Notes under the pieces: generated by a model
Seen by the model: only the letters and a program-made list of their open reading frames with translations
Told to the model about the DNA's origin: nothing
The model's database searches: none
Assembly (NCBI GenBank): GCA_963697205.1
Contig: CAVONB010000009.1
Location: 25,833 to 89,832, forward strand
Direction: 5' to 3'
Source: an uncultured Alphaproteobacteria bacterium
GTDB taxonomy: Bacteria > Pseudomonadota > Alphaproteobacteria > Rhizobiales > Hyphomicrobiaceae
DNA length: 64,000 nt
Translations under genes and position numbers: made by a program
Part shown: piece after piece, positions 4,597 through 29,741 of the stretch
Numbering within the stretch: the stretch's first letter is position 1
Layout: each line of letters starts with the position of its first letter

Positions 4597-4639
4597 TTGG
4601 GTGCTCCTGAGGCGCGCGACGGACGTCGGGCGGTTGGCG

Positions 4640-9312: not shown

Positions 9313-10238
9313 CGCGAAAGCCTCGGGTTGAGCGCGTCGCGAAGGCGGTCGCCGACGAGGTTGATCGACATGATTGTGATCAGCAGCGCGAGGCCCGGGA
9401 AGAAGCTGATCCAGTACTTGCCCGACAGCATGTACTCGAAGCCGTTGGAGATGAGCAGGCCCAGCGAGGGCTCGGTCGGCGGCAGGCCGACGCCGAGGAA
9501 CGACAGCGTAGCTTCGAGCGCGATGGCGTGCGCGGTCTGCACGGCGCCGACGACGATCAGCGGCGCGAGGCAGTTGGGAAGGATGTGGCGCAACAGGATG
9601 CGCGTGTGCGACAGGCCGAGACAGCGGGCGGCCTCGACATAGTCCTTGCCCCGCTCGACGAGCGCGCTCGCGCGCACGGTGCGGGCGAAGTAGGCCCACT
9701 GTACGGTCACGAGGGCGATGATGATCTTATCGACGCCTTTGCCCAGGATTGCGATCAGCATCAGTGCGATCAGGATCGCGGGAAACGAGAGCTGCATGTC
9801 GATCAGGCGCATGATCGCCGCCTCGATGCGCCCGCCGGCGTAGGCGGCGATCAGGCCGACCACGGCGCCGAGCACCATGGCGATGAGACCCGACAGCACG
9901 CCGACGGCAAGCGAGATCCGCAGGCCGTAGAGCATGGCGGAGACGAGGTCGCGCCCGGCTCCGTCCGAGCCGAGCCAGAAAGTCATGCCCGTCATGCTCT
10001 TGCTGCCGGGCGGTTGGCGGCTGTCCATGACGTCGACGGTGGCGAGGTCATAGGGGTTCTGCGGCGCGATCCAGGGCGCAAGGACGGCAAGCACGACGAT
10101 GATCGCCAGAAGGCAGAGCGCGACGGCTGCAATACGGCTTTCGAGAAAGGCTGACAGAAATCTGCGAAAGGGTCGCTCGGCTTCGACCGCGCCCGCGCCC
10201 CCGCTGCGATCCGACGGCGTGCCGGCGTCGATGCTCAT
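9309..10238 (-). CDS. Dipeptide/oligopeptide ABC transporter permease (DppC/OppC-like)
   Basis: ATG 10238 overlaps the upstream stop. Multi-TM protein with a binding-protein-dependent transport signature (EAARCLGLSHTRILLRHILPN). Confidence 0.9.
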   Translation of the reverse strand: MSIDAGTPSDRSGGAGAVEAERPFRRFLSAFLESRIAAVALCLLAIIVVLAVLAPWIAPQNPYDLATVDVMDSRQPPGSKSMTGMTFWLGSDGAGRDLVSAMLYGLRISLAVGVLSGLIAMVLGAVVGLIAAYAGGRIEAAIMRLIDMQLSFPAILIALMLIAILGKGVDKIIIALVTVQWAYFARTVRASALVERGKDYVEAARCLGLSHTRILLRHILPNCLAPLIVVGAVQTAHAIALEATLSFLGVGLPPTEPSLGLLISNGFEYMLSGKYWISFFPGLALLITIMSINLVGDRLRDALNPRLSR

Positions 10239-11212
10239 GCGCCAGTCTCCGCCAGACGCACGCGCGGATCGAGCACCGAATAGAGGATGTCGACGACGAG
10301 ATTGATGAACACGAACAGCAGCACGATGATGACGAGGTAGGCGACAATCACCGGCCGGTCGAGCGACTGGATCGAGGTAATGAGCAGGCGCCCCATGCCG
10401 GGCCAGGCGAAGATCGTTTCTGTCACCACCGAAAAGGCGACGAGGTTGCCGAACTCGAGCCCGATAACGGTGATGACCGGAATCAGGATGTTCTTCAATA
10501 GGTGCACACCCACGACGCGCCGCTCGGACAGGCCCTTGGCGCGGGCGAAGCGGATGTAGTCCTGCAGAATGCCCTCGCGCGCGCCGGCCTGCGTCAGGCG
10601 GATGACGAGCGACATTTTGAGGAGCGCGAGGTTGAAGGCGGGCAAAGCCAGATGGCGCCAGCCGTCGAGCGTGAAGAGACTCGACGTAATGCCGAGCACC
10701 GTCGAGGTTTGTCCGCGGCCCGACGACGGCAGCCAACCGAGCATCACCGCAAACACCATGATCAGCATCAGGCCGACCCAGAATGTCGGCAGCGAGAAGC
10801 CGACGATGGACCCAGCCATGATGGACTTGCCGCCGACGCTGTCGGGCTTGAGGCCCGCGTAGAGCCCGAGCGGGATGCCGAGCACGACGGCGAACAGCAG
10901 CGCGGCGAAGGCCAGCTCGAACGTGGCCGGCATGCGCTGGAGAATAACGCGCATGGCCGGCTCGCCGAACACGAACGACTTGCCGAGGTCGCCTTCGGAC
11001 ACGCCGCCGACGAAGTGGAGGTACTGCTCCCAGAGGGGACGATCGAGGCCGAGTGCCTGGATGGCGCGATCGATCTCGGCCTGGTCGGCCTGCGGGTCGA
11101 TCAGCAGGTAGACGGGATTGCCGATCACGTGCACGCCGGCGAACACGATCACCGACATCAGCGCGATGACGAGCGCACTCTGCATCAGACGCCGGAGGAT
11201 GAAGGCGAGCAT
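10235..11212 (-). CDS. Dipeptide/oligopeptide ABC transporter permease (DppB/OppB-like)
   Basis: 325 aa. Typical N-terminus MLAFILRRLMQS and the EAA-loop-like block YIRFARAKGLSERRVV. Confidence 0.9.
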   Translation of the reverse strand: MLAFILRRLMQSALVIALMSVIVFAGVHVIGNPVYLLIDPQADQAEIDRAIQALGLDRPLWEQYLHFVGGVSEGDLGKSFVFGEPAMRVILQRMPATFELAFAALLFAVVLGIPLGLYAGLKPDSVGGKSIMAGSIVGFSLPTFWVGLMLIMVFAVMLGWLPSSGRGQTSTVLGITSSLFTLDGWRHLALPAFNLALLKMSLVIRLTQAGAREGILQDYIRFARAKGLSERRVVGVHLLKNILIPVITVIGLEFGNLVAFSVVTETIFAWPGMGRLLITSIQSLDRPVIVAYLVIIVLLFVFINLVVDILYSVLDPRVRLAETGA

Positions 11213-11268: not shown

Positions 11269-12849
11269 TCAGTTCCCGCTCAGGTATTTGAGCAGCGTGT
11301 TTTCATCGGAGCGGGCCTTGTAAGTGAGACCCTTGCGCGCGGCCCACGTGCTCACCTGGTAGTGCAGCGGGATGATCGCGACATCCTCGATGGCAATCTC
11401 GGTCGCCTTGGCGAGGAGCGCCGCGCGCTTTGGATCGTCGTTGGTCACGAGTGCTTCCTCGGTCAGGCGGTCGACCTCCGCGTTGGAGTAGCGGCCACGG
11501 TTGGTGGCGCCGCGACCCGTTGCTTTGTTGAACGTCATGACGAGCGGCTTGACTGAGCCCGAGGCTTCGCCTGTGCCGGCACTCCAGCCCACGAGGATGA
11601 AGCTGAACTCGGGGCCACCGCCGGGTCCGCCGGTCGACGCGCGCGTGAAGAACGTGGCGGGTGGCAATGCCTCGATGGACGTCTCGATGCCGATGCGGGA
11701 GAGCATCTGCGCCACCGCTTCGGCGATCTTGATGTCGTTGGTGTATCGGCCGTTGGGCGTGTGCAGCGTCAACTTGAAACCGTTGGCAAGGCCTGCGTCG
11801 GCGAGAAACTTCTTGGCGCCAGCGAGGTCGTAACCCTCTGGCTTCAGCTTGTCGGAGACGCCGAAGTAGCCTTCGGGCAGGAACTGCGAGGCGGGAAGGG
11901 CTGCATTCTCCATCACACGCTCGACAATGGCGGGCCGGTTGAGCGCCTTGGACATTGCCTTCCTGACGCGCACGTCGCGCAGCGGGTTCTTGATCTCGGC
12001 GCCGTCCTTACCCTTCGCAAAGGGTGTCGTCTCCCGCGCATGATCGACGAAGAAGTAGATGACGCGGTTCGAGGTCGCCTGCGCGATTTGGAGCTTCGGA
12101 TCGTTCGTCAGGCGCGCGATGTCGGCGGTCGGCACGTCCTCGATGAAGTCGACGTCACCCGCAAGCAGTGCTGCAACGCGTGTCGGTCCGGACTTGATCA
12201 AGCGGAACGTCGCCTTTTGCCAGTCGGGCTTCTTGCCCCAGTAAGCATCGTTGCGGGCGAGCTCGACGCGGTCGCCCGGCGTGAACTTGACGAGCTTCCA
12301 GGCACCCGTACCGACTGCTGCCTTTCCGGAATTGAAGTCAGCGGTCGTGGCGCCTTCGCCATGCTTCTTCGATACGATCATGATCGTGGCGAGGTCGTTG
12401 GCCATGGTCGGGTAGACCGAGCCCGTGCTGAACCGCACAGTGTGGTCATCGACCTTGGTGACCTTCTTGCCCTTGACTGCGCCGCCGAAGCTCGACGGGC
12501 TGTTGGGCACGTTGCCGGCCCGGCCGAAAGTGAAGACGACGTCGTCGGCAGTGAACGGCGTGCCGTCGTGCCAGGTGACGCCCTTCCTCAGCTTGAACTC
12601 CCAGGTCGCATCGTCCACCACCTTCCAACTCTCGGCGAGACCCGGGATCAGACGCTGCTTCTCGTCCATCTCGATCAAGCGCTCGTAGATGTGGCTGAGA
12701 AAGGCGTTGTTCGGCGTCAGATTATGGTAGTGCGGGTCCATCGATGACGGCTCTGCGGAGAGCGCCACCTTGATCTCCTGAGCCGAGGCTCCGGCAGGCA
12801 TGACCAACATGCCGGCGATTGCCACCAGCGCGCGCATGAAGAACGACAT
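11269..12849 (-). CDS. ABC transporter substrate-binding protein, family 5 (peptide/nickel type)
   Basis: Start at ATG 12849 after GGGAGAC. Signal peptide MSFFMRALVAIAGMLVMPAGASA. Family-5 length and blocks (WHDGTPFTADDVVFTF). Confidence 0.9.
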   Translation of the reverse strand: MSFFMRALVAIAGMLVMPAGASAQEIKVALSAEPSSMDPHYHNLTPNNAFLSHIYERLIEMDEKQRLIPGLAESWKVVDDATWEFKLRKGVTWHDGTPFTADDVVFTFGRAGNVPNSPSSFGGAVKGKKVTKVDDHTVRFSTGSVYPTMANDLATIMIVSKKHGEGATTADFNSGKAAVGTGAWKLVKFTPGDRVELARNDAYWGKKPDWQKATFRLIKSGPTRVAALLAGDVDFIEDVPTADIARLTNDPKLQIAQATSNRVIYFFVDHARETTPFAKGKDGAEIKNPLRDVRVRKAMSKALNRPAIVERVMENAALPASQFLPEGYFGVSDKLKPEGYDLAGAKKFLADAGLANGFKLTLHTPNGRYTNDIKIAEAVAQMLSRIGIETSIEALPPATFFTRASTGGPGGGPEFSFILVGWSAGTGEASGSVKPLVMTFNKATGRGATNRGRYSNAEVDRLTEEALVTNDDPKRAALLAKATEIAIEDVAIIPLHYQVSTWAARKGLTYKARSDENTLLKYLSGN

Positions 12850-12953
12850 CGTAGTCTCCCTTTGCGATATCTTCCCTAGAGGCTTGCACGGATCTGGCGT
12901 CGCGTGCAATGCATCGCCGTGCCCGGAACGCGGGCAGACCAGGAGACCCCGCC

Positions 12954-14093
12954 ATGAGCGCGCTCGCAGGATCGATCGACGTCGAGGCCGTGCTGGCCGA
13001 CATCGAATGCATGGCCAGCATCGAGAGTCATACGGCCAGCCCCGAAGGGGTTAACCGCATGATGGACCTGATGATGACGTGGTTCGAGCCGCTCGGGGCC
13101 GGGCTCGAGCGGCAGAAAATCGACCCGCGGTTCGGCGATATGGTTCGTGTAGCGACTGACCCGGGGCGGGCCGGGCCGGGCATTCTCGTCCTGTCGCACC
13201 TGGATACGGTTCATCCCTTAGGAACGATTGCGCGTGATCTGCCGATCCGCCGCGACGGCGACCGGCTCTACGGGCCGGGCGTGTTCGACATGAAGGGCGG
13301 TGCGATGCTCGCGATCGCCGCATGGCGCAGCCTCGTCGCGGCCAAGGTCCGCACGCCGCTGCCGGTGACGTTTCTGTTCACGCCCGACGAGGAGAACGGG
13401 TCGGTCGGCTCGCGCCAGCACATCGAAGCCGCGGCCAGGAACGCCAAGTATGTGCTTGTCACAGAGCCCAAGCGGCATGGCGGACGCGTGGTGACGGCGC
13501 GCAAGGGCACTGGCCGTTTTCAGATCGAGGCGCGCGGCCGCCCGTCTCATGCGGGCGCCAAGCATGAGGAGGGCCGCAGCGCGATCCGCGCCATTGCGCA
13601 CGCCATTCTCGAGATCGAGGGTTGGACGGATTATGCGCGCGGTATCACTACCAATGTCGGCATCGTGCAGGGTGGGACCGGCGTCAACGTGATCCCGGAA
13701 CATGCGCGCATCAATGCCGATGTGCGCGTCTGCGATCCGCACAGCGCCGCGGAGATGGATCGCAGGTATCGCGCGCTCACCTCCAAGGTGGACGGCGTGA
13801 CGCTGAACGTCGCGGGGGGTATGACACGACCGCCGTGGACGTTCGATGCGACGGCCGAGCAGATTTTCGGCACGGCGGCGGCGATCGCGGCCGACCTCGG
13901 AATCAAGCTCGCGACGGGCCCGCGCACGGGCGGCGGATCGGACGGCAATTTCACAGCGGCGATGGGTATCCCGACGCTCGACGGCCTGGGGGTGGACGGA
14001 GAGGGCGCGCATACCCTCGACGAGCATCTATTGATCCCGTCGATCGCGCCGGGCGTTCGCCTGCTCCAGGGTCTGTTCGAGCGGTTGAGTTGA
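12954..14093 (+). CDS. M20 family metallopeptidase (glutamate carboxypeptidase/CPG2-like)
   Basis: ATG 12954. SHLDTV, GPGVFDMKGG, PDEENGS and RGRPSHAG motifs typical of M20 dimerising peptidases. Confidence 0.85.
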   Translation: MSALAGSIDVEAVLADIECMASIESHTASPEGVNRMMDLMMTWFEPLGAGLERQKIDPRFGDMVRVATDPGRAGPGILVLSHLDTVHPLGTIARDLPIRRDGDRLYGPGVFDMKGGAMLAIAAWRSLVAAKVRTPLPVTFLFTPDEENGSVGSRQHIEAAARNAKYVLVTEPKRHGGRVVTARKGTGRFQIEARGRPSHAGAKHEEGRSAIRAIAHAILEIEGWTDYARGITTNVGIVQGGTGVNVIPEHARINADVRVCDPHSAAEMDRRYRALTSKVDGVTLNVAGGMTRPPWTFDATAEQIFGTAAAIAADLGIKLATGPRTGGGSDGNFTAAMGIPTLDGLGVDGEGAHTLDEHLLIPSIAPGVRLLQGLFERLS

Positions 14094-14505
14094 AGCGTCG
14101 AACCACAACGTGGCCAAAGCTCCGCAACGCCCGGGCAATGCCCTGGCTGAAGAGGGGTCGGCGCACTGACTTGCCCTCGATCTGGCGGCGTTACGCCGAC
14201 CGCCTTGCCCAATCCCACATGGCCAGGACCGATATGGCTCCGCCTCAACCAGCAACGGTTGGAAGGTCAGCGTTTTCCATAACCTGTGTGTCGACCAAAC
14301 GGCTCGAGCAACCCAGTCCCGTTGCCTTCGGCGCGGCTCATCAAAAGACTGAAATCGGCTCCCTCATTGAAGGGGGGGCTGTAGCTTTCTGAAGCGCAGT
14401 TGATGACTTGGTGCGCTGCAAAAGGCGCAATCTCCCTGGACACGCGGCGCCCTTCCGGAATATCCACTATTCGCGGGGCGTTCGTCCCGGCGAGGGGGAG
14501 GGGGT

Positions 14506-16266
14506 ATGCCAATACGTCGGCACTTGGCGGTCGCGGCTGCGTGCGCTGTCGGCCTATTCGCGCTCCAGGCGGAGGCGCTTGCTGATCAGGATTGGCTGGC
14601 CGAACGCTTCGGGGGCGGTGCGGCAAAGCCCCCGCAAGTGGGCAAAAATGCTGATCCGAATCCTCCGGGCACTGCGCAGGCCAAACCTGAACTTCTCCAA
14701 CCCAAGCTGCCCCCCTCGTTCGGGAAGTGGCGCTGGAGAATTACCAAGACGTCTTGGTCCGAGACGGACGAGAAAGGCTTCGAAGCTTTCATCACAGCGA
14801 TCGGCGAGAGCGACTGCGGGACGGTCCACGACTGCATAAACTCGCCACAGGCCAATCCAAGATTTCAGGCTGGCAACCCACCGTATTACCGGTTTTACGC
14901 CGACTGTGCCGATCTCCCCTATTTTCTGAGGGCCTACTACGCCTCGCGCAACGGGCTGCCCTACTCTTTCTCATATCGGTACTCGGCTCATCCTCGCGGC
15001 ACGCGAAACAAGACGGCGATTACCGGCAACAGGATCACCGAACGCCACGATATCGTGGGGCCCGGTCCCGACATGCGAATTGCATGGGCCGAGATCGGCC
15101 GGTTCGTCTCATCGGAGCATTTTCGCACGCCGGCCCAATACTCGGCCAAATTGCTGCCCGACCATTATCCGGTCCAGCTGACGCGCGACAGCATCCGCCC
15201 CGGCACCGTGATCTTCGATCCGGATGGCCATCTGGCGATCGTCTATAAGGTTACGGATGACGGCCGCATCCATTACATCGACTCCCATCCCGACAACTCC
15301 TTGACGCGCGGCGTCTACAATCGGGAGTTCGCACGGGTGGAGCCGGAGATGGGATCCGGCTTCAAGCGCTTCCGTCCATTCGTGCTGAAAGGCGCCAGAC
15401 GGGCCGCCGACGGCACGCTGATCGGCGGCAAGATCGTCCACAAAACCGACAAGGAACTCTCCGACTGGTCCCTCGAGCAGTTCTACGGCAACGAGCCGAC
15501 ACGGCCGGGCAAGTGGAGCGAAGGCAAGTTCGTCCTCAACGGCAAGACATACGATTACTACGATTACCTGCGGTTCAAGCTCGCCTATGCCGGCTTCAAG
15601 TACAAGCCGGTCGATGAGGCCCGCGAGGCAATTCGCGGGATTTGCCAAGATCTGCGCTACCGGGTCGACATGGTTCAGATCGCGGTCAAGGCGGGTATCC
15701 ATCGTCGTCCTCAGCCAAACAAGCTGCCCGACAACATCTATGCGACAAAGGGCGACTGGGAGACCTACTCGACGCCCTCGCGAGATGCTCGGCTGAAGAC
15801 CTCGTTCGAGGAGCTGCGCGACGAAATCGCACGCTTCATAGATCTCCACAAGAGCGGCAGCGATCTTCTGAGCTACGACGGCACCAGCCTTCGCGACGAT
15901 CTGGCAAAGGTCTACCGGCAGGAGACCGCGGCGTGCGCGATCACCTACCTAAGGTCCGATGGGTCGGCAAAAACGCTGTCCTACCACGAGGTCGAGAAGC
16001 GGCTCTTCGACCTTTCCTTCGACCCGCATCACTGTCCGGAACTGAGATGGGGAGCGCGCAGCTCCGAAGAGCTGGCCACCTGTCCGGACGATGCCAACAA
16101 GCGGGCCTGGTACACCGCGCAGGACCGCTTGCGCAATCAGGTCACCCGCACATACGGGGAGCCGATGGGCTGGACGCTTGGCCAGCTTCGTAACCCAAAG
16201 CTCGACATCGGCATCGCAGAAGTCCCAGATGTGAATGTGCTGGCCGCCTTGGGTGCGAGTGACTGA
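14506..16266 (+). CDS. Secreted hypothetical protein (possible Cys/His hydrolase fold)
   Basis: 586 aa. ATG preceded by GGGGGAGGGGG. Signal peptide MPIRRHLAVAAACAVGLFALQAEALA. No family recognised with certainty. Confidence 0.7.
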   Translation: MPIRRHLAVAAACAVGLFALQAEALADQDWLAERFGGGAAKPPQVGKNADPNPPGTAQAKPELLQPKLPPSFGKWRWRITKTSWSETDEKGFEAFITAIGESDCGTVHDCINSPQANPRFQAGNPPYYRFYADCADLPYFLRAYYASRNGLPYSFSYRYSAHPRGTRNKTAITGNRITERHDIVGPGPDMRIAWAEIGRFVSSEHFRTPAQYSAKLLPDHYPVQLTRDSIRPGTVIFDPDGHLAIVYKVTDDGRIHYIDSHPDNSLTRGVYNREFARVEPEMGSGFKRFRPFVLKGARRAADGTLIGGKIVHKTDKELSDWSLEQFYGNEPTRPGKWSEGKFVLNGKTYDYYDYLRFKLAYAGFKYKPVDEAREAIRGICQDLRYRVDMVQIAVKAGIHRRPQPNKLPDNIYATKGDWETYSTPSRDARLKTSFEELRDEIARFIDLHKSGSDLLSYDGTSLRDDLAKVYRQETAACAITYLRSDGSAKTLSYHEVEKRLFDLSFDPHHCPELRWGARSSEELATCPDDANKRAWYTAQDRLRNQVTRTYGEPMGWTLGQLRNPKLDIGIAEVPDVNVLAALGASD

Positions 16267-16549
16267 CCAGCGAGCCTCGGCAGATCCACGCTACAGCCAT
16301 TCTATTGAGCAGGTGCAGCAGCGGCTGGCCAGATTGCAGCGGCGCAACAGATACCGAAAAATCTGACGTTTCGGCTTGGAATATCGCTTGCCTGCTCACG
16401 GAGTATGGCCCGTTCCTATCCTCGGGATTGGTTCGTCGTTTACCAAGCGGATCTCAGGGGTGGGATCTGCTGTGCCGTGTGGATTATGCATTGGATCGAC
16501 CGGGGGCATTCCCTACCTTCGGCGGAACCTGGGGAAATGCGCAGCGTCC

Positions 16550-19500
16550 ATGGACCACTCAAGCGCTCGTCATGCCGGCGCGTTCCTGCGCGGCCGCGAT
16601 CACCCGGACCTGATCCGCTCCGAAACACTCGTAGACATCTTTCGAGCCACCGCCAGTCGGGCTCCCGACAAGACCGCGATCGCGTTGATCGGGGGCGGGC
16701 AGGCGCTGACCTATTGCGAACTCGAAGCCCGGACCCAGCGGGTGGGACGGGCGCTCGCCGCGCGGGGCGTGCGCCGCGGCCAGCGCGTCGGCCTGTGGGT
16801 GTCGCGCTCGCTCGATTTGCACGTCCTGCTCCTTGGCATTCTCGCAGCGGGCGCCGCCTACGTTCCCTTCGACGCCGATACACCGGCTGCACGCGTTCTG
16901 GACTGTCTCGCTGATTGCGGCGCCAATTGGCTGGTCACCGATTCGGTCGATCCTCTCCCCGCTGAAGAGCCGCGCATTGTGACCTTGACGCTTGGGCAGT
17001 TGCTCGAAAGCGATGATGTTGGAGCCAAACTGGATACGCCACGCCCTGACGACGCCGCCTATGTGATCTACACATCCGGCTCCACCGGTCGGCCTAAGGG
17101 CATCGAGATAACCCACCGCGGCATCTGTCATTATCTGCGGGCCGGCAACGCCGTGCTCGGCATCGACGCAAGCGACGTCGTTCTGCAGCAGGCATCCGTC
17201 GCATTCGACTTGTCGCTCGAGGAAATCTTCGTTCCTTACCTCGTTGGTGCGACGCTGAAGGTTGCCCCTCCCAATTTTCTTCAACGCACGGACCGGCTGG
17301 CCGACGTGCTCGAGACGGAGGGTATCACGGTCGTCGACACGGTCCCCACGCTGCTGTCGTTGCTGGAGCGGGACCCAGCGAGCGTCAGGCTGATCATCCT
17401 CGGCGGTGAAGCGTGCCCGGCGCCGCTCGCAGAGCGTTTCGCGCGCAGCGGACGGCGGATCGTCAACACCTATGGGCCGACGGAGGCCACGGTCGTCGCG
17501 ACGACCTGCGAATTGCGCCCAGGTGAACCGGTCACGATTGGTACTCCGATTGCCAATACGGTCGTCTGCGTCGTCGATGAGGAGATGCGTCCTGTCGCGC
17601 CCGGCGACGTCGGAGAGCTGCTGATCGGTGGTCCGGGCGTGGCGTCGGGATACATCGGCCTTCCCGAGCTCACGGCACAGAAGTTCATCAACAACCCGTT
17701 CGAGGAGGAGGCCGATCGACACCCCGTGCTTTACCGCTCGGGCGATGCCGTTCGCATCAATTCCGAAGGCATGCTCGAATTCCACGGTCGCATCGACTCG
17801 CAGGTCAAGATCCGCGGCTATCGCATCGAGCTGGGGGAGATCGAGTCCGCCTTGTCGGACCAGCCCGAGGTCGAGGTGGCAGCCGTGGTCGTCCACAAGC
17901 AGCCGGTGGTCGGCGACATGCTGGTTGCGTATGTCGTGGCCGGCATTGCGTTCGATCTCGATAAAACGCGGGCGTTGCTCGCCGAGCGTCTGCCGGCCTA
18001 CATGCTGCCGCAGCATTGGCGCATGCGCGCTGAACTGCCGCGATTGCCCTCCGGCAAGATCGATCGCAACAGTCTAGCCGCCGAGCCGATCGAAATCCGC
18101 ACTTCGCGTGATCAACAGGAAAGCCCGTCGACGCTCACCGAGGGCGTGCTGCTCAAGGCGGCGCAAGACGTACTCGGGCAGCCGGTGATCGACCTCGACG
18201 CAGATTTCTTCGAGGATCTCAGTGGACATTCGCTGCTCGCGGCGAATTTCGTATCTGAGGTCCGCAAAACAACAGCGCTCGCTGGAATCGCGTTGCAGGA
18301 CGTTTACGGCGAGCGCACCCTTCGTAAGATCGCAGCGGCGCTCGATGCGCGGACGCACGGCTCGTCAATTCCTCATCAGGATCTGTCTTTCGAACCGCCG
18401 CCGTTTCGCCGCCGCTTCATCTGCGGGCTGGCGCAGGCTGCCGCACTGCCTTTCATCATAGCGATCGTCACGCTGCAGTGGATGGGCCTTCTGCTCTCGT
18501 CGATCTACTTGATCCGCGCAGAAACCCCGCTCTGGAAGGAAGTCGTGATCCTGTGCGGAATTTTCGCTGGTCTGAACCTCGGCTCGAAGCTTCTGGTGGT
18601 GGCACTCAAGTGGCTCGTCATCGGACGCACGAAGCCCGGTGTCTACCCGCTCTGGGGAGCCTACTATTACCGCATCTGGCTTATGCAGCGGATCGTGCAC
18701 CTGACCGGGCACAAGTTCCTTCAGGGTACACCTCTGATGCGGATCTACCTGCGCGCGTTGGGTGCCAAAGTCGGACGCGACGCGATCATTCACGAGTTCG
18801 AGGAGGGCGCCATCGACCTGATCTCGATCGGCGCTCGGGTATCGACAGGGCAGAAGGTGCGCTTTGCGAATGTGGAGGTGATCGGCAACGAGGTGCATGT
18901 CGGTTGCACATCGATCGGCGACGACGCGGTTATCGGAAACGCCTGCGTTCTGGAGGGCGACGTCGTGATAGGCGCCGGCGCGGAGATTGCCGATCTCACC
19001 TCTATTCCGGCCGGGATGCGCGTGGGCAGTCACGAGCGCTGGGACGGTGCACCCGGACGATACGTCGGCCATGTGCAGCCGCACGGGCTGCCGCCGCATC
19101 CGGAAGCCGGATCACTGCTGCGCGCGTGGCATGTCGTGCGCTACTTCGTGACGTATAACCTCGCCATGATGATCGGGCTGTTGCCCATCTTCCCCGCGTT
19201 CTACATCCTGACCGAGCTCGACGATTTCACATTCGGCGACCGGGATCACGTCGTGCCCTGGGAGTGGGTGTTCGTGCTCGCATGGCCTGCAGCCATGATT
19301 TTGATCCTCAGCTCGATCCTGCTGATCGTCGTGATGCGTTGGGCTCTTCTTCCTGTCGTTCGCCCAGGCACCCACTCGATTTTTTCCGGGTTCTATTTCC
19401 GTAAGTGGGTGATGAGCCTGGCTACGGAGACTGTGCTCGAGACGCTCAACTCCCTTTATGCCACGCTGTTCATGCGCAACTGGTACCGGCTGATGGGGAC

Positions 19501-20602
19501 GAAGATCGGGCGTGGTACGGAGATATCCTCGAATTTTGCGGGCCGCTACGATCTCATCGAGCTTGGCGAGGACAATTTCCTCGGCGATGAGGCAATCTTT
19601 GGCGATGAGGACGTTCGTGGCGGCTGGATGACGCTGGATCGCGTGAAGACTGGCAATCTTTGCTTTTTTGGGAACTTATCGGTTGTCGCCAAGGGGGCCC
19701 AAATCGATGATGGAGCCCTGATCGGCGTGAAGTCGAAACTTCCCGAGAGCGGCAGGGTTGGTGCGAATGAGACCTGGTTCGGCAGTCCGCCGATCGAGAT
19801 CCCGAACCGCCAGCGTGTGGTTCTCGGCAACAGTCTGACGTACCGTCCACCGTTGAGGATGCGCGCGCTGCGGACCGGTTTCGAGGCGCTGCATACCTCC
19901 CTGCCGACCGCTGTCCTGATCACGCTTGCCTACGTTTCTGCCGACGTCATGGAGTTCCCCATCGACGCGGGCGACTGGGGCATGGCTATCGCGATCTTCT
20001 TCGTCGCCGGCTTGCTCGTTTCGCTCGCGATGGTCCTGGTGTCGGTTGGCTTCAAGTGGCTCCTCATGGGCGCCTATCGTCCAACCGTGCGGCCGATGTG
20101 GTCGTGGTGGGCGATGCGTACCGAGGCCGTCGCCGTGCTCTATGGCGGCTTGTCGAGTAAAGTGATGCTCGACTATCTGAGGGGCACGCCATTCCTACCG
20201 ATGATGCTCCGCCTTTACGGTACCAAGATCGGCAAGGGAACCTATCTGAACAGCCCGGATCTGACCGAGTTTGATTGTGTCGAGATCGGTGATTTCGCGG
20301 TCGTCAACATGCTTGCCAGTCCGCAAACCCATCTCTACGAGGACCGCGTCATGAAGGTCGGACGCATCAAGATTGGTCGTGGCGTTACGATCGGAACCGC
20401 AGCGATCGTCCTGTACGACAGCGAGATCGGCGATTTTGCTCGGTTATCTCCACTGACCGTCGTGATGAAGGGGGAGAGCATCCCACCGCACACAGTGTGG
20501 ACCGGCGCGCCGGCACGAAGGGTCGTTGAGGAGACGCCATCAATCCTGGACGAGAGTGTTCCGGAACCCGGCAACGCCCAACTGGCAGCGGCTGTCGCGT
20601 AA
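16550..20602 (+). CDS. Pls-type non-ribosomal peptide synthetase: A domain, carrier domain, then three [2 TM + LbH-like] repeats (homopoly(amino acid) synthetase-like)
   Basis: A-domain cores YTSGSTGRPKG, NTYGPTE, GELLIGG, YRSGD, GRIDSQVKIRGYRIELGEIE and PSGKIDR. Carrier motif DLSGHSLLA. Three-fold C-terminal repeat marked by LRALGAKVGRDAII, YRLMGTKIGRGTEI and LRLYGTKIGKGTYL, interleaved with hydrophobic helix pairs. Start chosen at ATG 16550. Confidence 0.85.
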   Translation: MDHSSARHAGAFLRGRDHPDLIRSETLVDIFRATASRAPDKTAIALIGGGQALTYCELEARTQRVGRALAARGVRRGQRVGLWVSRSLDLHVLLLGILAAGAAYVPFDADTPAARVLDCLADCGANWLVTDSVDPLPAEEPRIVTLTLGQLLESDDVGAKLDTPRPDDAAYVIYTSGSTGRPKGIEITHRGICHYLRAGNAVLGIDASDVVLQQASVAFDLSLEEIFVPYLVGATLKVAPPNFLQRTDRLADVLETEGITVVDTVPTLLSLLERDPASVRLIILGGEACPAPLAERFARSGRRIVNTYGPTEATVVATTCELRPGEPVTIGTPIANTVVCVVDEEMRPVAPGDVGELLIGGPGVASGYIGLPELTAQKFINNPFEEEADRHPVLYRSGDAVRINSEGMLEFHGRIDSQVKIRGYRIELGEIESALSDQPEVEVAAVVVHKQPVVGDMLVAYVVAGIAFDLDKTRALLAERLPAYMLPQHWRMRAELPRLPSGKIDRNSLAAEPIEIRTSRDQQESPSTLTEGVLLKAAQDVLGQPVIDLDADFFEDLSGHSLLAANFVSEVRKTTALAGIALQDVYGERTLRKIAAALDARTHGSSIPHQDLSFEPPPFRRRFICGLAQAAALPFIIAIVTLQWMGLLLSSIYLIRAETPLWKEVVILCGIFAGLNLGSKLLVVALKWLVIGRTKPGVYPLWGAYYYRIWLMQRIVHLTGHKFLQGTPLMRIYLRALGAKVGRDAIIHEFEEGAIDLISIGARVSTGQKVRFANVEVIGNEVHVGCTSIGDDAVIGNACVLEGDVVIGAGAEIADLTSIPAGMRVGSHERWDGAPGRYVGHVQPHGLPPHPEAGSLLRAWHVVRYFVTYNLAMMIGLLPIFPAFYILTELDDFTFGDRDHVVPWEWVFVLAWPAAMILILSSILLIVVMRWALLPVVRPGTHSIFSGFYFRKWVMSLATETVLETLNSLYATLFMRNWYRLMGTKIGRGTEISSNFAGRYDLIELGEDNFLGDEAIFGDEDVRGGWMTLDRVKTGNLCFFGNLSVVAKGAQIDDGALIGVKSKLPESGRVGANETWFGSPPIEIPNRQRVVLGNSLTYRPPLRMRALRTGFEALHTSLPTAVLITLAYVSADVMEFPIDAGDWGMAIAIFFVAGLLVSLAMVLVSVGFKWLLMGAYRPTVRPMWSWWAMRTEAVAVLYGGLSSKVMLDYLRGTPFLPMMLRLYGTKIGKGTYLNSPDLTEFDCVEIGDFAVVNMLASPQTHLYEDRVMKVGRIKIGRGVTIGTAAIVLYDSEIGDFARLSPLTVVMKGESIPPHTVWTGAPARRVVEETPSILDESVPEPGNAQLAAAVA

Positions 20603-20624
20603 TTCTGATTAGTGGGTTTCTGCG

Positions 20625-21314
20625 ATGCCATCCGACTGGCCAGGAACCGCCTTGCGTCTCGATCATTCGATCGCGGTGTTGACATTCGAGGGCTTGGCCG
20701 CGGTGGCACCGGCTGACCGCATCGCGCGGGTACAGCATCTCCTGCGACGGGCTGCAGGGCGAGACGACATCATCGTCGGGCGGAGACCAAGTGGTCGTCC
20801 CTGCCTCGGGCCGCCGCTCCCAGAGCTTGGGATTTCGGTCGCGCACAGCGGCTGCTCAAGTCTGATCGGTCTTTCCTGCAGTCGCGCTGTCGGCGTCGAT
20901 CTCGAACAGGAGACGAGATTTGAGCGTCTTGATGTCCGGCGACTGGCCCGCGATCACTTTTCGCCCGGTGAGCGGGCAGCAATCGCATCGCGCAAGGATG
21001 CCGAAGCAAAAGCGCTGTTCATGGCGCTTTGGGTGGCGAAGGAATCGATCTTGAAGCTCAGCGGCCGTGGCATAGTCGATGGGCTGGCCATGCCAGATTT
21101 GTCGGGTCATGTGGAGGCGCTGATGTCCGCGCATCTGACCGCGAACCAGCCTATCCCGATCGCTGTCGCCGACCTGTCTCTGATCGTCATCCGCATGGTT
21201 GCGGCGAGGAGGCCAACCGTCGTCGCTGCGCTTTGCCACGCTCAGGATCAAGTGCCGATCGACGCGGTAGGGCCGGAAGCAGCCGCCAGTCCTAGGCTTC
21301 GGTTTGAGCCTTGA
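20625..21314 (+). CDS. 4'-phosphopantetheinyl transferase (Sfp type)
   Basis: Starts 22 nt after the synthetase stop. GVDLEQ and WVAKESILKLSG motifs. Confidence 0.8.
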   Translation: MPSDWPGTALRLDHSIAVLTFEGLAAVAPADRIARVQHLLRRAAGRDDIIVGRRPSGRPCLGPPLPELGISVAHSGCSSLIGLSCSRAVGVDLEQETRFERLDVRRLARDHFSPGERAAIASRKDAEAKALFMALWVAKESILKLSGRGIVDGLAMPDLSGHVEALMSAHLTANQPIPIAVADLSLIVIRMVAARRPTVVAALCHAQDQVPIDAVGPEAAASPRLRFEP

Positions 21315-21482
21315 GGGGTTGCTGAGATCTTCGCGGCGACACCGCCTGCTTCTGGCCCGTCACGTCGGCGGCCTGACGGTCGGTATCGGATCACTTCGAC
21401 CGAAGCCGCGGCAGTTGCGGGCGGCGACACTGAAAGCGCCATCCACCGTGTCGGGTCTCTGGGATATCGCGTCAGCAGAGCA

Positions 21483-21800
21483 AATATCGATCTTCTCTGC
21501 GATCTCTAGGGCGTCATTCACCTCGATGCCGAGGCATGGAACTGTGATCCCGATCTTCGAGCGGCCGAGCAGAAGTTGCACCGCCCTGCCGGTTTTCTTC
21601 GGGCGTCTCGTCACCCGTTCCAGCGAATAGCCGCCCGGCGCGACATCATCGCCTTTGACGGCGACGACATCGCAACCTCGCAATTTACTGCCGGTCGCAT
21701 GTTGAACAACACGAGGCTCCTCGACTTGACCTCGATCTGCAGCTTGGCTCGGCCCCACCGGTGGCTTCGAGCCGACGAGCCTGCCCTTGTTCCAGGGTAC
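21483..21800 (-). pseudogene. Tyrosine recombinase/integrase remnant with internal deletion
   Basis: VPWNKGRLVGSKPP (N-terminal block) and SKLRGCDVVAVKGDDV are joined directly to the C-terminal block RAVQLLLGRSKIGITVPCLGIEVNDALEIAEKIDI. The catalytic core between them is missing. Confidence 0.6.
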
Positions 21801-22064
21801 GCGGGCCGGTTTCACGGCTAGGGGTGGAGGCTGTCCCGTGGATTGTCTCCACGATTCACGGGCAAGCCAAGTTGCGCCCGTCGCCGGCGAGCCGTCTCCG
21901 GTTGAAGCCAAGGCGCCGAGCGCACCAACAATAGCTAGCGGTGTCCGGCCAACGGTGACAGCGCAAGGGGTGGGCACAAAGCGAGATTGCCATCGACAGG
22001 CGTCGGCCTCGGCTGCGACTATATTTTCGTTGACAGCGATGCTCAATTGTCGACAGTCCTTGGC

Positions 22065-22586: not shown

Positions 22587-24242
22587 ATGTCCATCGCAGT
22601 CTCGCTGCAAGCGCAGGCGATCGCCTTGCGTTTTGCCGTCCTCGTATTCGTCCTGCTGGCTCTGCCCGCCGTCGCCCACGAGGGGCATGACCATGGGCCG
22701 CCGGCGCCCGCGCTGCCGACCACGATCAAGCCGAGGCTCGCCGTGCACACCGACACATACGAGCTCGTCGCGATCCGTCAGGGCGCGCGGCTGTCGATCT
22801 TCCTCGACCGCTACGCCACCAACGCGCCCGTCACGGACGCCAAGCTGGCCGTCATGGCTGGGGCCGAGACCTATGCCGCCGAGCCGCGCCCCGACGGCAC
22901 CTACCGGGTCGACGTGCCGAGCCTTGCCGAAGCCGGACGGCACGAGCTGATTTTCACCGTAGCCCATGCCCTCGGCGACGACCTCCTCGCCGGCGAGATC
23001 GTGACCGAGCCGGGGCCGCCCGTCGCGCCGCCCCCCCCAAGCCCCGACGGCCACTCTGCGCAGACGTGGTGGGCCGCAGCGTTGGCCCTCGTCGCGGGCC
23101 TCGCACTCGGCAGCCTGGTGCGACGGCGGGCCGCCGCGCCTCTCCTGATCGCTGCCGTCGCCTTGGCGTTGTCCCCGCCTGCAGCCCAAGCACACGAGGG
23201 CCACGCGCTGAGCCCCGCACCGGCAAGCGAAAGCCTGTCGGGAGATATTCCGCGCCGGCTGCCGGACGGCAGCGTGTTCCTTCCGAAACCGACGCAGCGG
23301 CTGCTGTCGATACGCAGTCAGCTCGCCGTGGAGGCGGAAGTGCCGCGCAGCACCCGCCTAGTCGGTCGGATCATTGCCGATCCCAACAGGTCCGGCCTGG
23401 TGCAAAGCATCGCCGGCGGGCGCGTCAGCGCGCCGGCCGGCGGCTTGCCTCTGCTCGGTCAAACCGTGCGAAAGGGCGAGACCCTGGCGACCGTGACGCC
23501 CGCGCTGCCGCTGGCCGACCAGTCGACGCTGCTCGAAAAGCAGCGCGAGCTGGAAGGTGCGCTTCTGCTCGCACGCCAACGCCTCGCCCGCCTGACGCGC
23601 CTCGAAGCGACCAGTACGCCACGGGCGCAGATAGAGGACATCGACCAGGAGATCGCAAATCTCGAGCAGCGCCTGGCAAGCCTGAAAGCGGCCAAGATCA
23701 GCCCGGAAATCCTGGAGGCGCCGATCGACGGCGTCGTCTCCGCCACGCGCGTAGCGATCGGTCAGGTGGTGCAGGGCCAGGACGTGCTGTTTCAGATCGT
23801 CGATCCTGCGCGCCTATGGGTCGAAGCGCTCTTGTTCGATCCGCTCGACCCCGCGCGCATCGAGGAGGCCAGCGCGACCATGCCGGACGGCAAAGTCGTG
23901 CCGCTCGTCTACAAGGGTCGCGGTCGCGCCGTGCAGTCGCAGGCGGCCCTGATCCAGTTCGCGATGACTGCAACACCCGCAAGCGCGCTGATCGGGCTGC
24001 CCGTGACCGTGCATGCCAGGAACGCGCAGCGCATCAAGGGCATGCTACTGCCGCGCGACGCTGTGGTGCGCGGTCCGGCCGGCGAGAGCATCGTCTGGCA
24101 CCATGTCGACCCCGAGCGCTTCGTCGCGCGGCCCGTTCGCATTGTGACCTACGACGGCGCGCAGGTGGTGGTAACGGCTGGCATCACAGCCAATGACCGG
24201 ATCGTCGTGCATGCCGCCGAGCTCATCTCGCAGGTCAGGTGA
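22587..24242 (+). CDS. RND efflux periplasmic adaptor (HlyD/CusB/CzcB family) with an extra N-terminal periplasmic module
   Basis: 551 aa. The C-terminal ~330 aa is a typical membrane-fusion protein with a coiled coil and beta-barrel blocks. The N-terminus has signal peptide + HEGHDHG + a ~130-aa domain, then two TM segments before the adaptor part. Confidence 0.85.
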   Translation: MSIAVSLQAQAIALRFAVLVFVLLALPAVAHEGHDHGPPAPALPTTIKPRLAVHTDTYELVAIRQGARLSIFLDRYATNAPVTDAKLAVMAGAETYAAEPRPDGTYRVDVPSLAEAGRHELIFTVAHALGDDLLAGEIVTEPGPPVAPPPPSPDGHSAQTWWAAALALVAGLALGSLVRRRAAAPLLIAAVALALSPPAAQAHEGHALSPAPASESLSGDIPRRLPDGSVFLPKPTQRLLSIRSQLAVEAEVPRSTRLVGRIIADPNRSGLVQSIAGGRVSAPAGGLPLLGQTVRKGETLATVTPALPLADQSTLLEKQRELEGALLLARQRLARLTRLEATSTPRAQIEDIDQEIANLEQRLASLKAAKISPEILEAPIDGVVSATRVAIGQVVQGQDVLFQIVDPARLWVEALLFDPLDPARIEEASATMPDGKVVPLVYKGRGRAVQSQAALIQFAMTATPASALIGLPVTVHARNAQRIKGMLLPRDAVVRGPAGESIVWHHVDPERFVARPVRIVTYDGAQVVVTAGITANDRIVVHAAELISQVR

Positions 24243-24251
24243 GGTGCCGTC

Positions 24252-27200
24252 ATGTTCAATTTCCTCGTCACCAAGAGCCTCCAGAACAGGTTGTTGGTCA
24301 TCGCAGCGGCCATGCTGTTGGTGCTCTATGGCGCCTTCGTGCTGCCGAAGGTGCCGGTCGACGTCTTCCCCGACCTGAACAAGCCGACCGTCACGATCAT
24401 GACGGAGGCCGAAGGCCTCGCGCCCGAGGAGGTCGAGCTCAACGTCACCAATCGCATCGAGACCGCCATGAACGGTTTGCCGGGCGTCACGCGCGTACGC
24501 TCTGTCTCCGGCATCGGCCTGTCGATCATCTATGTCGAGTTCGAATGGGGCAGCGACATCTGGCGCAACCGCCAGCTTGTCGCAGAGCGGATGACCTCGA
24601 TCGGCAGTCAGCTGCCGCCGGGCATCACGCCGCAGATGGGACCGGTGACGTCGATCATGGGCGAGATCATGCTGATCGCGCTTCAGTCGGAGACGGTCTC
24701 GCCGATGGAGCTGCGCGAGATCGCCGACTACACGCTGCGCCCGCAACTGTTGACCATAGCCGGCGTGTCGCAGGTGATCCCGATCGGCGGCGAGGTGCGC
24801 CAGTTCCGCATCTCGCCCATGCCGGGCGCCATGCGCGCCGCGGGCGTATCGGCCGGCGAGATCGAGCGCGCGGCCCAACGCTTCGGCCAGAATGTCGCCG
24901 GGGGCTTCGTCGATCAGCAGGGCCGCGAGTTTCTCATCCGCGGCGTCGGCCTGACGCGTCGGCTCGATGACCTACGCAACGTTGTCGTGTCGACCCGTGA
25001 CGGCCAGCCGATCCTGATGCGGCAGGTGGCAAGCGTGGAGTTTGCCGCCCGCGTGAAGCGTGGCGAGGCCGGCTACCAGGGCAAGCCCGCCGTCATCGTC
25101 TCGGTCCAGAAGCAGCCAAACGCCGACACGATTGAACTGACGAAGCGCATCGAAGCCGTGCTCGAAGCTATGCAGGCGACATTGCCGCAAGGTGTCTCGG
25201 CCGACAACGTGCAGTTTCGTCAGGCGACCTTCATAGAGACGTCGATCGCCAATCTGAAATCGGTGCTGATCGAGGCGACCGCGGTGGTCGCCGTCGTGCT
25301 GTTCCTGTTTCTGATGAACTGGCGCGCCACGGTCATCTCTTTGACCGCCATCCCGGTCTCTATCCTGACCACGATCGTGATTTTCTCGCTGTTCGGCCTC
25401 ACCATCAACACGATGTCGCTCGGCGGACTGGCCATCGCGGTCGGGGAGCTGGTCGACGATGCCGTCGTCGACGTGGAGAACATCCTGCGGCGGCTGCGCG
25501 AGAACCGGGAGCGCGCCAAGCCACGTCCTGTGCTCGACGTGGTCGCCGCTGCCAGCCAGGAGGTGCGCTCCGGCATCGTCTACGCCACCGCGATCGTCAT
25601 CCTTGTGTTCGTGCCGCTGTTCGCGCTTTCGGGAATCGAGGGGCGCCTGTTCTCCCCGCTTGGCGTCGCCTACATCATCGCGATCCTGGCCTCGCTCGTC
25701 ACCGCCGTCACTTTGACCCCCGTAATGGCCTACTACCTGCTGGGAATACGAGCGAACGCGCATCGTGGCGACAATCCGCTGGTGCGGACGCTTAAATCGG
25801 CGAACCGCTCGGCCATGCTCTTCGCGTTCTCCAATCGTGCGTTGGTGCTGATGCTGGCCGCCGGTGCAGTAGCCGGCGCGGTGCTCGCCGCCCAATCCTT
25901 GCCGCGCAGCTTTCTGCCGCCCTTCAACGAGGGTACGCTGACGGTGAACGTGCTCTACGATCCCGGCATCAGCCTGAAGGAATCGAACCGCCTCGGCCTC
26001 GTCGCCGAGCAGCTCTTGCTCGGCGTGCCCGAAGTGAAGTCGGTCGGCCGGCGAACGGGGCGGGCGGAACTCGACGAGCACGCGGAAGGCGTCCACTCAT
26101 CCGAGATCGACATCGACCTCGTGCGCTCGGCCCGCTCCAAGGCAGAGGTCCTGGCCGACATCCGCCTGCGGCTGTCGGCGCTGCCCGTCGCGGTGAACGT
26201 CGGCCAGCCGATCTCTCACCGGCTCGATCATCTGCTTTCCGGCATCCGGGCCGAAATCGCGCTCAAGATCTATGGCGAGGATATCGACACGCTCCGCACG
26301 CTGGCGGAGGCGTTCCGCGAGCGGTTGTCGGCGCTGCCAGAGCTGGTTGACCTGCAGATCGAAAAGCAGGTGCGCATTCCCCAGGTGCGCGTCGCGGTCG
26401 ACTATCAGCGGGCCGCCCTCTACGGCCTGACGGCAGCCTCGGTCACGGAAGCCCTCGAGACGCTGTCGGCCGGGCGCGTGGTCTCGACCATCGCCGATGG
26501 GCTGAAGACATTCGAGGTCGTTGTCCGCCTCGCCGATGCCGACCGCTCCACCGCGGGGCTCGGTGCCATGCTGATCTCCACCCCTGCCGGCGTGATACCG
26601 CTGCGGCTCGTCGCCGACATCGAGGAGACCGAAGGACCCAACCAGATCCAGCGCGAGAACACGCGGCGCAGGATCGTCGTGTTCGCCAACACCGCCGACG
26701 GCGCCGATATGGCGCGCGTCGTCGCAGCCATCCGCGGCGAGATCGCAAAGGCAACGCTCCCTTCCGGCTATGCGGTGGCGCTCGAGGGCACGTTCGCGGC
26801 GCAGGAGCAGGCGTCCAAGCTGATAGGCATGCTGTCGCTCGTCTCCCTGGCGCTGATCTTCCTCATTCTGGCCTCGCGCTATCGCTCGGCCGTGCTGGCA
26901 CTCGTCATCATGGGAATCATTCCGATGGCGCTCGTCGGCAGCGTCGCCGGGCTGTACATCGCTGGCCAGCCGCTGTCGGTGGCCTCGATGATCGGTTTCG
27001 TGACGCTGGCGGGCATTACCGCGCGCAACGGCATTCTCAAGATCAGCCACGCGATCAATATCGCGATTGCCGAGCAGCTGCCGTTCGGGCCGGATCTCGT
27101 GATCCGCGCGAGCCTGGAGCGGCTGACGCCCGTACTGATGACGGCATTGTCAGCCGGCCTCGCCCTGCTCCCCCTGCTGTGGGCGGCCGATGCGCCCGGC

Positions 27201-29681: not shown

Positions 29682-29741
29682 CCTAGGTTGCGGACACCAA
29701 GAGCATGGACCCGCAGCGAACGGAAGAGGAGTGGCAACGCG

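Follow-up and report, generated by a model that had tools for sequence, protein, structure and literature searches.

The three-gene block

The window analysed here is the whole stretch of 64,000 nucleotides (nt) taken from contig CAVONB010000009.1 (positions 25,833 to 89,832, forward strand) of an uncultured alphaproteobacterium of the family Hyphomicrobiaceae. At positions 14506-21314 of this window, three open reading frames (ORFs) on the same strand fill a compact block of 6.8 kb, which encodes a protein with a predicted signal peptide (UP586), a membrane non-ribosomal peptide synthetase (NRPS) of the Pls/PosA family, i.e. of the cationic homopoly(amino acid) (CHPA) synthetases, and an Sfp-type 4'-phosphopantetheinyl transferase (PPTase). 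The sequence evidence makes it highly probable that this block is a horizontally acquired cassette of three genes assembled around a functional CHPA synthetase, with the secreted protein proposed as a hydrolase of the polymer. The three genes, the domains of the synthetase (A, adenylation; T, carrier) and the recombinase remnant that follows them are:

14506..16266, + strand: UP586 gene, first gene of the cassette, for a predicted secreted or periplasmic protein of 586 amino acids (aa) from an unannotated family
16550..20602, + strand: Pls/PosA-family single-module membrane NRPS (A-T-terminal domain), 1350 aa
16640..18058, + strand: adenylation domain of the synthetase, aa 31-503, with cores A1-A10 intact and specificity code DLEDIGTVVK
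18149..18343, + strand: carrier (PP-binding) domain of the synthetase, aa 534-598, with the phosphopantetheine serine Ser561 within LSGHSLL
18431..20515, + strand: Pls/PosA terminal domain of the synthetase, aa 628-1322, recognised by TIGR02353, Hexapep, hydropathy and internal repeats
20625..21314, + strand: Sfp-type 4'-phosphopantetheinyl transferase, 229 aa, recognised by PF01648 and motifs
21444..21833, - strand: tyrosine recombinase (integrase) relic, found by tblastn, with about 130 recognisable codons and no intact ORF

The 1350-aa product that the sequence-only reading of this DNA had assigned to 16550-20602 is encoded there, and its translation contains the strings FFEDLSGHSLLA, LRALGAKVGRDAII, YRLMGTKIGRGTEI and LRLYGTKIGKGTYL that had been quoted from it. 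In its longest form the synthetase ORF starts at a TTG at 16376; the ATG at 16550 is taken as the start because it is supported by an identical database protein and by all homologues (1340-1360 aa). The spacer between the UP586 and synthetase genes measures 283 nt, and a search of it for a riboswitch or leader gave no Rfam match and no block common to eight cassettes. The synthetase stop codon is separated from the PPTase start by 22 nt, exactly the spacing that had been given for the PPTase gene. All three ORFs are full length relative to their homologues, and the catalytic motifs are all intact.

The PPTase matches PF01648 (E 1e-13; 51.5 bits, cutoff 25) and shows partial matches to HetI, AcpT and AusB that stay below the equivalog cutoffs of NCBIfam. 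The motifs GISVAHS, VGVD and WVAKESILK lie at aa 69, 89 and 136, and together with the length of the protein and the profile hidden Markov model (HMM) of the ACPS superfamily they place it among the Sfp-type (group II) enzymes. A homologue lies directly downstream of the synthetase gene in the clade closest to the window and in a Rhizobium clade, in which it is kept but missing from some loci (e.g. L010, L026 and L043).

The synthetase and its binding pocket

The Pfam scan of the synthetase gives AMP-binding at aa 31-368 (E 7e-84), AMP-binding_C at 430-503, PP-binding at 534-598 and one Hexapep at 787-814, and no match to the Condensation, Epimerase or Thioesterase models, in agreement with the earlier description of one adenylation and one carrier domain and no condensation, epimerisation or thioesterase domain. 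Among the NCBIfam models, TIGR01733 (amino-acid adenylation domain) scores above its cutoff, and TIGR02353 ('Pls/PosA family NRPS') reaches 580.9 bits against a curated cutoff of 423.1 and covers aa 628-1322 with model positions 2-695 of 695. Every model that the sequence-only reading had named (TIGR02353, AMP-binding, PP-binding and ACPS) thus scores above its cutoff. A defective carrier serine or adenylation core, named there as a possible point of failure, is not seen, with Ser561 in place in LSGHSLL and cores A1-A10 all present.

The tail of the synthetase is formed by three units that match one another at E 4e-20, 2e-18 and 5e-13, each composed of a pair of hydrophobic helices followed by a soluble segment of the left-handed beta-helix type. 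The three-fold repeat with paired helices had been recognised correctly, with a size, about 780 aa, that is to be reduced to about 735 aa. Transmembrane (TM) helices were assigned from Kyte-Doolittle hydropathy and the repeat alignment: five segments exceed 1.6, and a weak sixth (aa 1120-1138, 1.43) aligns with TM1 and TM3. In this family the terminal domain comprises six TM helices and three beta-helix segments, packed by AlphaFold as one pseudo-threefold domain (PMC10522769).

The nearest characterised enzyme is PosA, the delta-poly-L-ornithine synthetase of Acinetobacter baumannii, for which structures of the A domain are available (8G95-8G98; PMC10522769). The PosA sequence was taken from the supplement of Patel & Gulick 2023 (PMC10522769) as machine-read text with a few residues dropped, and it is colinear with the window synthetase over residues 13-1322, with 36% identity over 1322 columns and 779 bits. 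The PosA A domain is also the best match in the PDB among entries with a single A domain (8G95/8G96, 345 bits), whereas the A domain of Pls (7WEW) is more distant, at 283 bits. PosA shares with the window synthetase the A-T-terminal-domain architecture, a Gram-negative host and the Asp, Glu and Thr at code positions 1, 3 and 7, but differs from it in its code (DMEHNGTVSK, so that Met218, His260 and Ser313 are replaced here by Leu, Asp and Val) and in that the window synthetase has PPTase and secreted-protein genes attached. Pls, the epsilon-poly-L-lysine synthetase of Streptomyces albulus and founding member of the family, from which TIGR02353 takes its name, resembles the window enzyme in its six TM helices and three tandem soluble domains; its host, however, is Gram-positive, and its code position 2 is Ala, for Lys.

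The terminal-domain HMM, the single A and single carrier domain, the three TM pairs and repeats and the Asp/Glu pocket agree, and on every criterion that can be tested in its sequence the enzyme is a member of the Pls/PosA (CHPA synthetase) family. The Pls-like A-T-(TM-TM-C')x3 layout that had been proposed is borne out by the full-length TIGR02353 match, the colinearity with PosA, the paired TM helices and the three repeats, and the match of layout is far beyond chance.

The specificity code was read from the core motifs and confirmed on the PosA alignment as D220, L221, E224, D263, I283, G285, T307, V315, V316 and K503, that is, DLEDIGTVVK, with D220 and E224 aligned with PosA D217 and E221. 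In PosA crystals the Asp at position 1 and the Glu at position 3 bind the alpha-amine and the side-chain amine, and both are kept in all CHPA synthetases (PMC10522769). The code found here keeps these two residues (Asp235 for the alpha-amine, Glu239 for the side-chain amine) and adds an Asp at position 4. Position 2 has been proposed as a ruler of chain length, with Phe in the enzymes for diaminopropionate (Dap) and diaminobutyrate (Dab), Met for ornithine (Orn), Ala for Lys and Gly for beta-Lys (PMC10522769); the Leu of the window synthetase is similar in size to the Met found with Orn and larger than the Ala found with Lys. A 2025 survey of codes from modular NRPSs assigns DGEDHGTVVK to Lys, DGEDHGTVTK to Orn and DMEDVGSVDK to Orn/Lys (PMC12283262), and because of these the D-x-E-D-x-G-T-V-V-K skeleton is read as a pocket of the Lys/Orn type. 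Read from the sequence, then, the locus holds an intact A-T-terminal-domain enzyme anchored in the membrane, with a pocket suited to a cationic substrate and an intact Sfp-type PPTase next to it.

The code pattern DLED[IVL]G[TS][VI]VK is found in 120/120 of the closest homologues, and the clade is therefore likely to share one substrate. The same ten residues are listed for Rhizobium hainanense WP_075855952.1 (Suppl. Table 2, PMC10522769), one of a set of uncharacterised alphaproteobacterial synthetases with the code D-L-E-D-I/L-G-T-V-T/V/I-K; the carriers of the DLED-type signature are given in the main text of that paper as 'Archaea, Rhizobia, Methylobacterium'. The R. hainanense synthetase locus (L015) is 59-60% identical to that of the window and carries the NCBI name 'Pls/PosA family non-ribosomal peptide synthetase'.

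With regard to the monomer, the cassette has no precursor-supply genes, and a primary metabolite is therefore favoured. The best guess from sequence ranks Orn first, then Dab, then Lys, then Arg or another amino acid; L-ornithine or another C4-C5 diamino acid is placed first because the Leu at position 2 is near Met in size. Two points count against a direct transfer of the PosA model. Mutation of PosA S313 raises the Km for Orn about 130-fold (PMC10522769), and since this residue is Val in the window synthetase the pocket is not simply PosA-like; likewise, PosA His260 is Asp here, so that the second amine contact would come from a different wall of the pocket. A third point is that DLEDIGTVVK is catalogued as an uncharacterised binding pocket (PMC10522769), and a literature search found no characterisation of the DLED-code clade after 2023, so that the identity of the polymer is a guess.

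Distribution, mobility and genomic context

A word-indexed search gave at least 7,992 synthetase homologues at E <= 1e-50 among 8,000 candidates scored, most of them named 'Pls/PosA family non-ribosomal peptide synthetase' by NCBI, with relatives in Labrys, Rhizobium, Agrobacterium rhizogenes, Microvirga, Enterovirga, Alsobacter, Camelimonas, Azospirillum and metagenome-assembled genomes (MAGs) of Hyphomicrobiaceae. A genome scan with one genome per species and the terminal-domain alignment as query confirmed at least 504 synthetase loci, of which the best 80 are all from Alphaproteobacteria. The closest relatives among the matches listed are MAGs of Hyphomicrobiaceae/Hyphomicrobiales (62-81% identity in the terminal domain), in line with the alphaproteobacterium-like host that had been deduced without a database. 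The novelty attached to such an enzyme in a Gram-negative, alphaproteobacterium-like host has to be reduced: PosA of A. baumannii is characterised and the alphaproteobacterial code group is catalogued (PMC10522769). With more than 7,900 homologues and an NCBI family name in addition, novelty was overstated. The enzyme type, its occurrence in Gram-negative bacteria, its wide alphaproteobacterial spread and the exact code are already in the literature or in NCBI annotation; the present analysis adds that the three genes form a mobile cassette, and proposes for a large protein family without annotation a role that can be tested.

The neighbourhoods were compared by tblastn of the window proteins against 80 genome loci and six further loci (86 related loci); tblastx synteny against relatives was uninformative, as the high GC content gives matches everywhere. 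In L001, L002, L004, L008, L009, L020, L081/L082 and L084, of the clade closest to the window, the synthetase has UP586 immediately before it and the PPTase immediately after it, and the arrangement UP586-NRPS-PPTase, with order and strand kept, is found at 55-74% identity in nine or more further assemblies whose flanks are unrelated. In L081, for example, the cassette has an S9 peptidase at one end, with CreA and a serine recombinase at the opposite end, and in L084 the flanking genes are those of a 2-hydroxyacid dehydrogenase and an ABC transporter. The top-120 match lists of UP586 and the synthetase have at least 24 contigs in common, contigs of the same length being taken as identical. None of the genes that flank the cassette in the window (a dipeptide ABC transporter, an M20 peptidase and a HlyD/RND pump) lies beside it in the 86 related loci. 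As the order UP586-NRPS-PPTase is conserved amid differing flanks, the unit is these three genes.

Other clades have a different setting. The Rhizobium clade has no UP586 and instead a two-component system upstream, whereas the window belongs to a Hyphomicrobiaceae-like clade with UP586-NRPS-PPTase: in the Rhizobium loci (L010-L016, L021, L022 and others), at about 5.6-7.7 kb in locus coordinates, a conserved sensor histidine kinase of about 463 aa and a response regulator of 223 aa precede the synthetase on the opposite strand, which suggests two-component regulation dedicated to the synthetase. In L023-L080 (Beijerinckiaceae, Azospirillum, Methylocella and others) the synthetase stands at a conserved place in the chromosome among housekeeping genes, with fabI and a histidine phosphatase gene upstream and aroC and ribB downstream, has neither PPTase nor UP586 beside it, and looks like a gene of the core genome rather than of an island.

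This last arrangement bears on the type of product. The synthetase might aminoacylate an envelope acceptor (a lipid, a glycan or another periplasmic molecule) or add short oligo-cationic tails to it, so that the outcome would be a modified surface charge and neither a free homopolymer nor an antibiotic. The orthologue of many Beijerinckiaceae, Azospirillum and other Hyphomicrobiales stands alone among housekeeping genes such as fabI and aroC, lacks export and immunity genes and resembles a physiological function of the envelope more than a cluster for a secondary metabolite, and the products of PosA are just 7-12 residues long; yet the characterised members (Pls, PosA and the Dap, Dab and beta-Lys enzymes) all make a free homopolymer from free monomer or polymer acceptor, and nothing in the sequence of the window synthetase sets it apart from them. 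Modification of an envelope acceptor is therefore quite improbable, and synthesis of a free cationic homopolymer is preferred.

The composition of the cassette differs from its surroundings, with a GC of 0.617 against 0.65-0.66 in the flanks and a GC content at third codon positions (GC3) of 0.67-0.76 against 0.81-0.86; the lowest GC3 (0.67) is that of the PPTase gene. Downstream, at 21444-21833, a tblastn search against plasmids aligned the DNA with 318 records, of which the best matches, at 42-46% identity (E down to 7e-10), are annotated 'tyrosine-type recombinase/integrase', each split in two pieces. This element has no Pfam match at E up to 10, no PHROGs match and no intact ORF, and it lacks an intact PF00589 domain with the R-H-R-Y residues. 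It is considered a relic, not a gene, because about 130 residues are recognisable, split and without a Pfam match. A decayed integrase had been reported after the block, and its presence stands, on the minus strand, opposite to the cassette. The lower GC and GC3, the integrase relic and the occurrence of the same cassette in unrelated flanks elsewhere all favour the horizontal acquisition that had been suspected, and judged by composition and context the block 14506-21314 is one that has moved between genomes as a mobile unit.

The borders are less clear. No tRNA genes were found as an integration site. A 17-nt direct repeat at 14168-14184 and 21723-21739 (GACTTGCCCTCGATCTG / GACTTGACCTCGATCTG, 16/17 identical) brackets the cassette, its right copy falling inside the integrase relic; it may be an att remnant or a chance match, being short and not a convincing att border. 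At 31146-32111 on the minus strand lies an IS1595-family (ISXO2-like) transposase gene, which also points to a mosaic structure of this contig region.

A mobile block may also be a dead one, and the cassette could be a remnant on a defunct integrative element, silent or in decay, that gives no product in this organism. The integrase is down to a fragment, the GC3 of the PPTase gene is the lowest of the cassette, and a scan for sigma-70 promoters and terminators gave no excess over shuffled sequence. Against this, the three ORFs are full length relative to their homologues with catalytic motifs intact, and in a fixed island a decayed integrase is nothing unusual. There is very little probability in such a silent remnant compared with a functional cassette.

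UP586, the proposed pathway and neighbouring genes

The N-terminus of UP586, MPIRRHLAVAAACAVGLFALQAEALA followed after the cleavage point by DQ, has a basic n-region, a hydrophobic core of 14 residues and an A-L-A cleavage motif, and a Sec signal peptide is plausible. The description of this protein as a secreted orphan is plausible in its first part; it is no orphan, having more than 2,100 homologues and accompanying the synthetase repeatedly. A word-indexed search found 2,118 homologues, and an exhaustive search, clustered at 50% identity, gave 911 clusters, of which 280 have E <= 1e-30. All are 'hypothetical', without name or Pfam domain, and UP586 itself has no match in Pfam, NCBIfam or PHROGs.

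The mature part contains seven cysteines, all conserved. An alignment with 128 diverse relatives (33-53% identity) shows Cys134, within D-C-A-D-L-P, conserved in 124/129 sequences (the rest being four gaps and one Val), His242, within G-H, in 128/129, Asp259 in 109/129 and His261 in 114/129. An AlphaFold2 model built with 50 homologues (pLDDT 87, pTM 0.85, residues 20-61 disordered) places Cys134 before the helix 137-148 and His242 at the opening of the strand 243-249, and in this model the placement fits that expected for the nucleophile and base of a papain-like pair. Foldseek was run with the full model against the PDB and BFVD, and against the PDB with a separate model of the domain at aa 70-305 (pLDDT just 69.6); nothing reached E <= 0.001, the best values over the three runs being 0.33, 0.10 and 0.57. 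CHAP/papain-fold proteins recur among the best sub-significant matches of all three runs, namely the Staphylococcus aureus CHAP amidase 5T1Q (E 0.33), PcsB 4CGK (E 0.57) and phage 'CHAP domain protein' entries (E 0.1-1), and further matches of this kind are C39-like peptidase domains and the S. saprophyticus CHAP domain 2K3A.

A possible resemblance to the CHAP and NlpC-P60 papain-fold enzymes, an example of which is PgdS, the poly-gamma-glutamate hydrolase encoded beside the pgs operon, lies in the modelled position of the Cys at a helix N-terminus and of the His at the start of a strand and in the predicted secretion; the difference is that UP586, of about 560 aa, has large extra helical domains and a Cys-His spacing of about 108 residues. 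Typical CHAP domains have a shorter spacing. A profile of 50 homologues run against all PDB sequences gave only a chance match (E = 1), and hhalign of the UP586 profile with the Escherichia coli MepS sequence aligned only 15 columns ('RxGD-hhhF') with probability 0.1. No profile-HMM or fold match that defines the CHAP or NlpC-P60 families was obtained, and UP586 is for that reason not filed as a member of either. As an observation on the family at large, one relative (P0245) has a C-terminal FGE-sulfatase-like domain and another (P0264) an N-terminal polysaccharide deacetylase domain; the sequences of the family hint at an extracytoplasmic role related to the envelope or to polysaccharides.

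From the modelled Cys/His arrangement, UP586 may be a candidate secreted Cys/His (CHAP-like) hydrolase for the polymer. The pairing of a polymer synthetase with a hydrolase is known from S. albulus: pldII, which encodes a Zn-peptidase, adjoins pls and is translationally coupled to it, and the peptidase acts outside the membrane, sets chain length and protects the producer (PMC9223678). By analogy, pls-pldII is a functional precedent for the pairing of a synthetase gene with the gene of an extracytoplasmic hydrolase, a role that for UP586 is a proposal. The two partners differ in that PldII is a Zn metallopeptidase encoded downstream, whereas UP586 is an unrelated candidate Cys/His protein encoded upstream.

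Several observations weigh against this assignment. No hydrolase matches UP586 significantly in sequence or fold, and homologues of UP586 at about 55% identity stand alone in unrelated contexts with no synthetase nearby. UP586 is not an obligate partner, since the close synthetases of L005-L007 and all the more distant clades are without it, and its 283-nt spacer is not conserved, in contrast with the 22-nt gap between NRPS and PPTase. The stand-alone homologues, the synthetase clades without UP586 and the spacer, together with the fusions to polysaccharide deacetylase or FGE-sulfatase-like domains, would also suit a synthetase that works as described with UP586 as a mere neighbour, i.e. a periplasmic envelope hydrolase or binding protein (acting e.g. 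on peptidoglycan or exopolysaccharide) carried on the same mobile block. The recurrence of the same order and strand in other assemblies with different flanks, and the contigs shared by the best matches of both proteins, speak for a functional tie, as such linkage is hard to explain without selection. A mere neighbour is thus a serious alternative, though a somewhat doubtful one, to a hydrolase that acts on the polymer.

With UP586 as polymer hydrolase, the pathway can be drawn up on the model of Pls and PosA. The adjacent Sfp-type PPTase would convert the carrier serine Ser561 to its holo form, and the single A domain would then adenylate one cationic alpha-amino acid and load it as a thioester. 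The terminal domain, with its six TM helices and three beta-helix segments in a pseudo-trimeric arrangement, would iterate the transfer onto the side-chain amine of free monomer or chain, and the resulting isopeptide-linked homopolymer would reach the periplasm by way of the membrane domain, passing through it or along it. UP586 would there trim or degrade the polymer outside the cytoplasm, for control of chain length or for self-protection in the manner of PldII, which is the weakest step of the scheme. A further point that weighs against the scheme is that the cassette has no dedicated gene for outer-membrane export or immunity. In a bolder version, which is unlikely, the DLED clade may make a cationic isopeptide polymer outside the six known (from Arg, a hydroxy-diamino acid or a non-canonical monomer, or with another linkage), and UP586 would found a new family of periplasmic Cys/His isopeptidases, the two forming a mobile 'make-and-trim' module.

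Cationic isopeptide homopolymers such as epsilon-polylysine are used as industrial preservatives and cell-penetrating carriers, and few of their monomers and synthetases are characterised so far. The locus does not change the view of the enzyme class, but it gives access to the large alphaproteobacterial DLEDIGTVVK clade by an expression unit that is compact and seems complete, and is a good target for genome mining; as the cassette brings its own PPTase, heterologous expression should be straightforward. The recurrent secreted partner is a concrete candidate for how a Gram-negative producer controls or tolerates a polymer in its periplasm, and the hydrolase role of UP586, if true, would be the first function for a family that has no annotation and comprises roughly 900 clusters at 50% identity.

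Two neighbouring systems were considered for a part in the pathway and set aside. To the right lie genes for a HlyD-type membrane-fusion protein (22587-24242, +) and an AcrB-type RND transporter (24252-27374, +), with no outer-membrane factor gene adjacent. This pump (22587-27374) lies beyond the relic, and as it has host-like GC3 and is beside the cassette in 0/86 related loci it is probably unrelated to polymer export. To the left, the island is bordered by a divergent gene for a cytoplasmic M20 peptidase (12909-14093) and by a dipeptide/oligopeptide ABC transporter on the minus strand (ATPase 8305-9699, permease 10235-11212, substrate-binding protein 11269-12909). The M20 peptidase was rejected as an analogue of PldII: it has no signal peptide, shows host-like GC3, belongs with the divergent transporter and is missing from other cassettes. 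An M20 peptidase with 48% identity to it is encoded in L086 (2858-4003), 3 kb upstream of a stand-alone UP586 homologue, perhaps by coincidence.

Elsewhere in the window, a right-handed beta-helix protein (36809-38332, +) is encoded next to a PAN-domain astacin (M12A) metallopeptidase (38393-40204, +), both probably secreted; astacins are uncommon in bacteria. A family-21 glycosyltransferase gene (28509-29681, +) is followed by one for a stand-alone response-regulator receiver protein (29688-30170, +), whose homologues cluster with the response regulators near the synthetase in the Rhizobium clade, probably through general similarity of receiver domains. On the minus strand, a group at 2884-7087 encodes a flavoprotein of the fumarate reductase/succinate dehydrogenase type (2884-4596), a D-glutamate cyclase (4640-5449) and an Amidohydro_2 protein (5846-7087), and may be a small catabolic cluster for D-amino acids or lactams.

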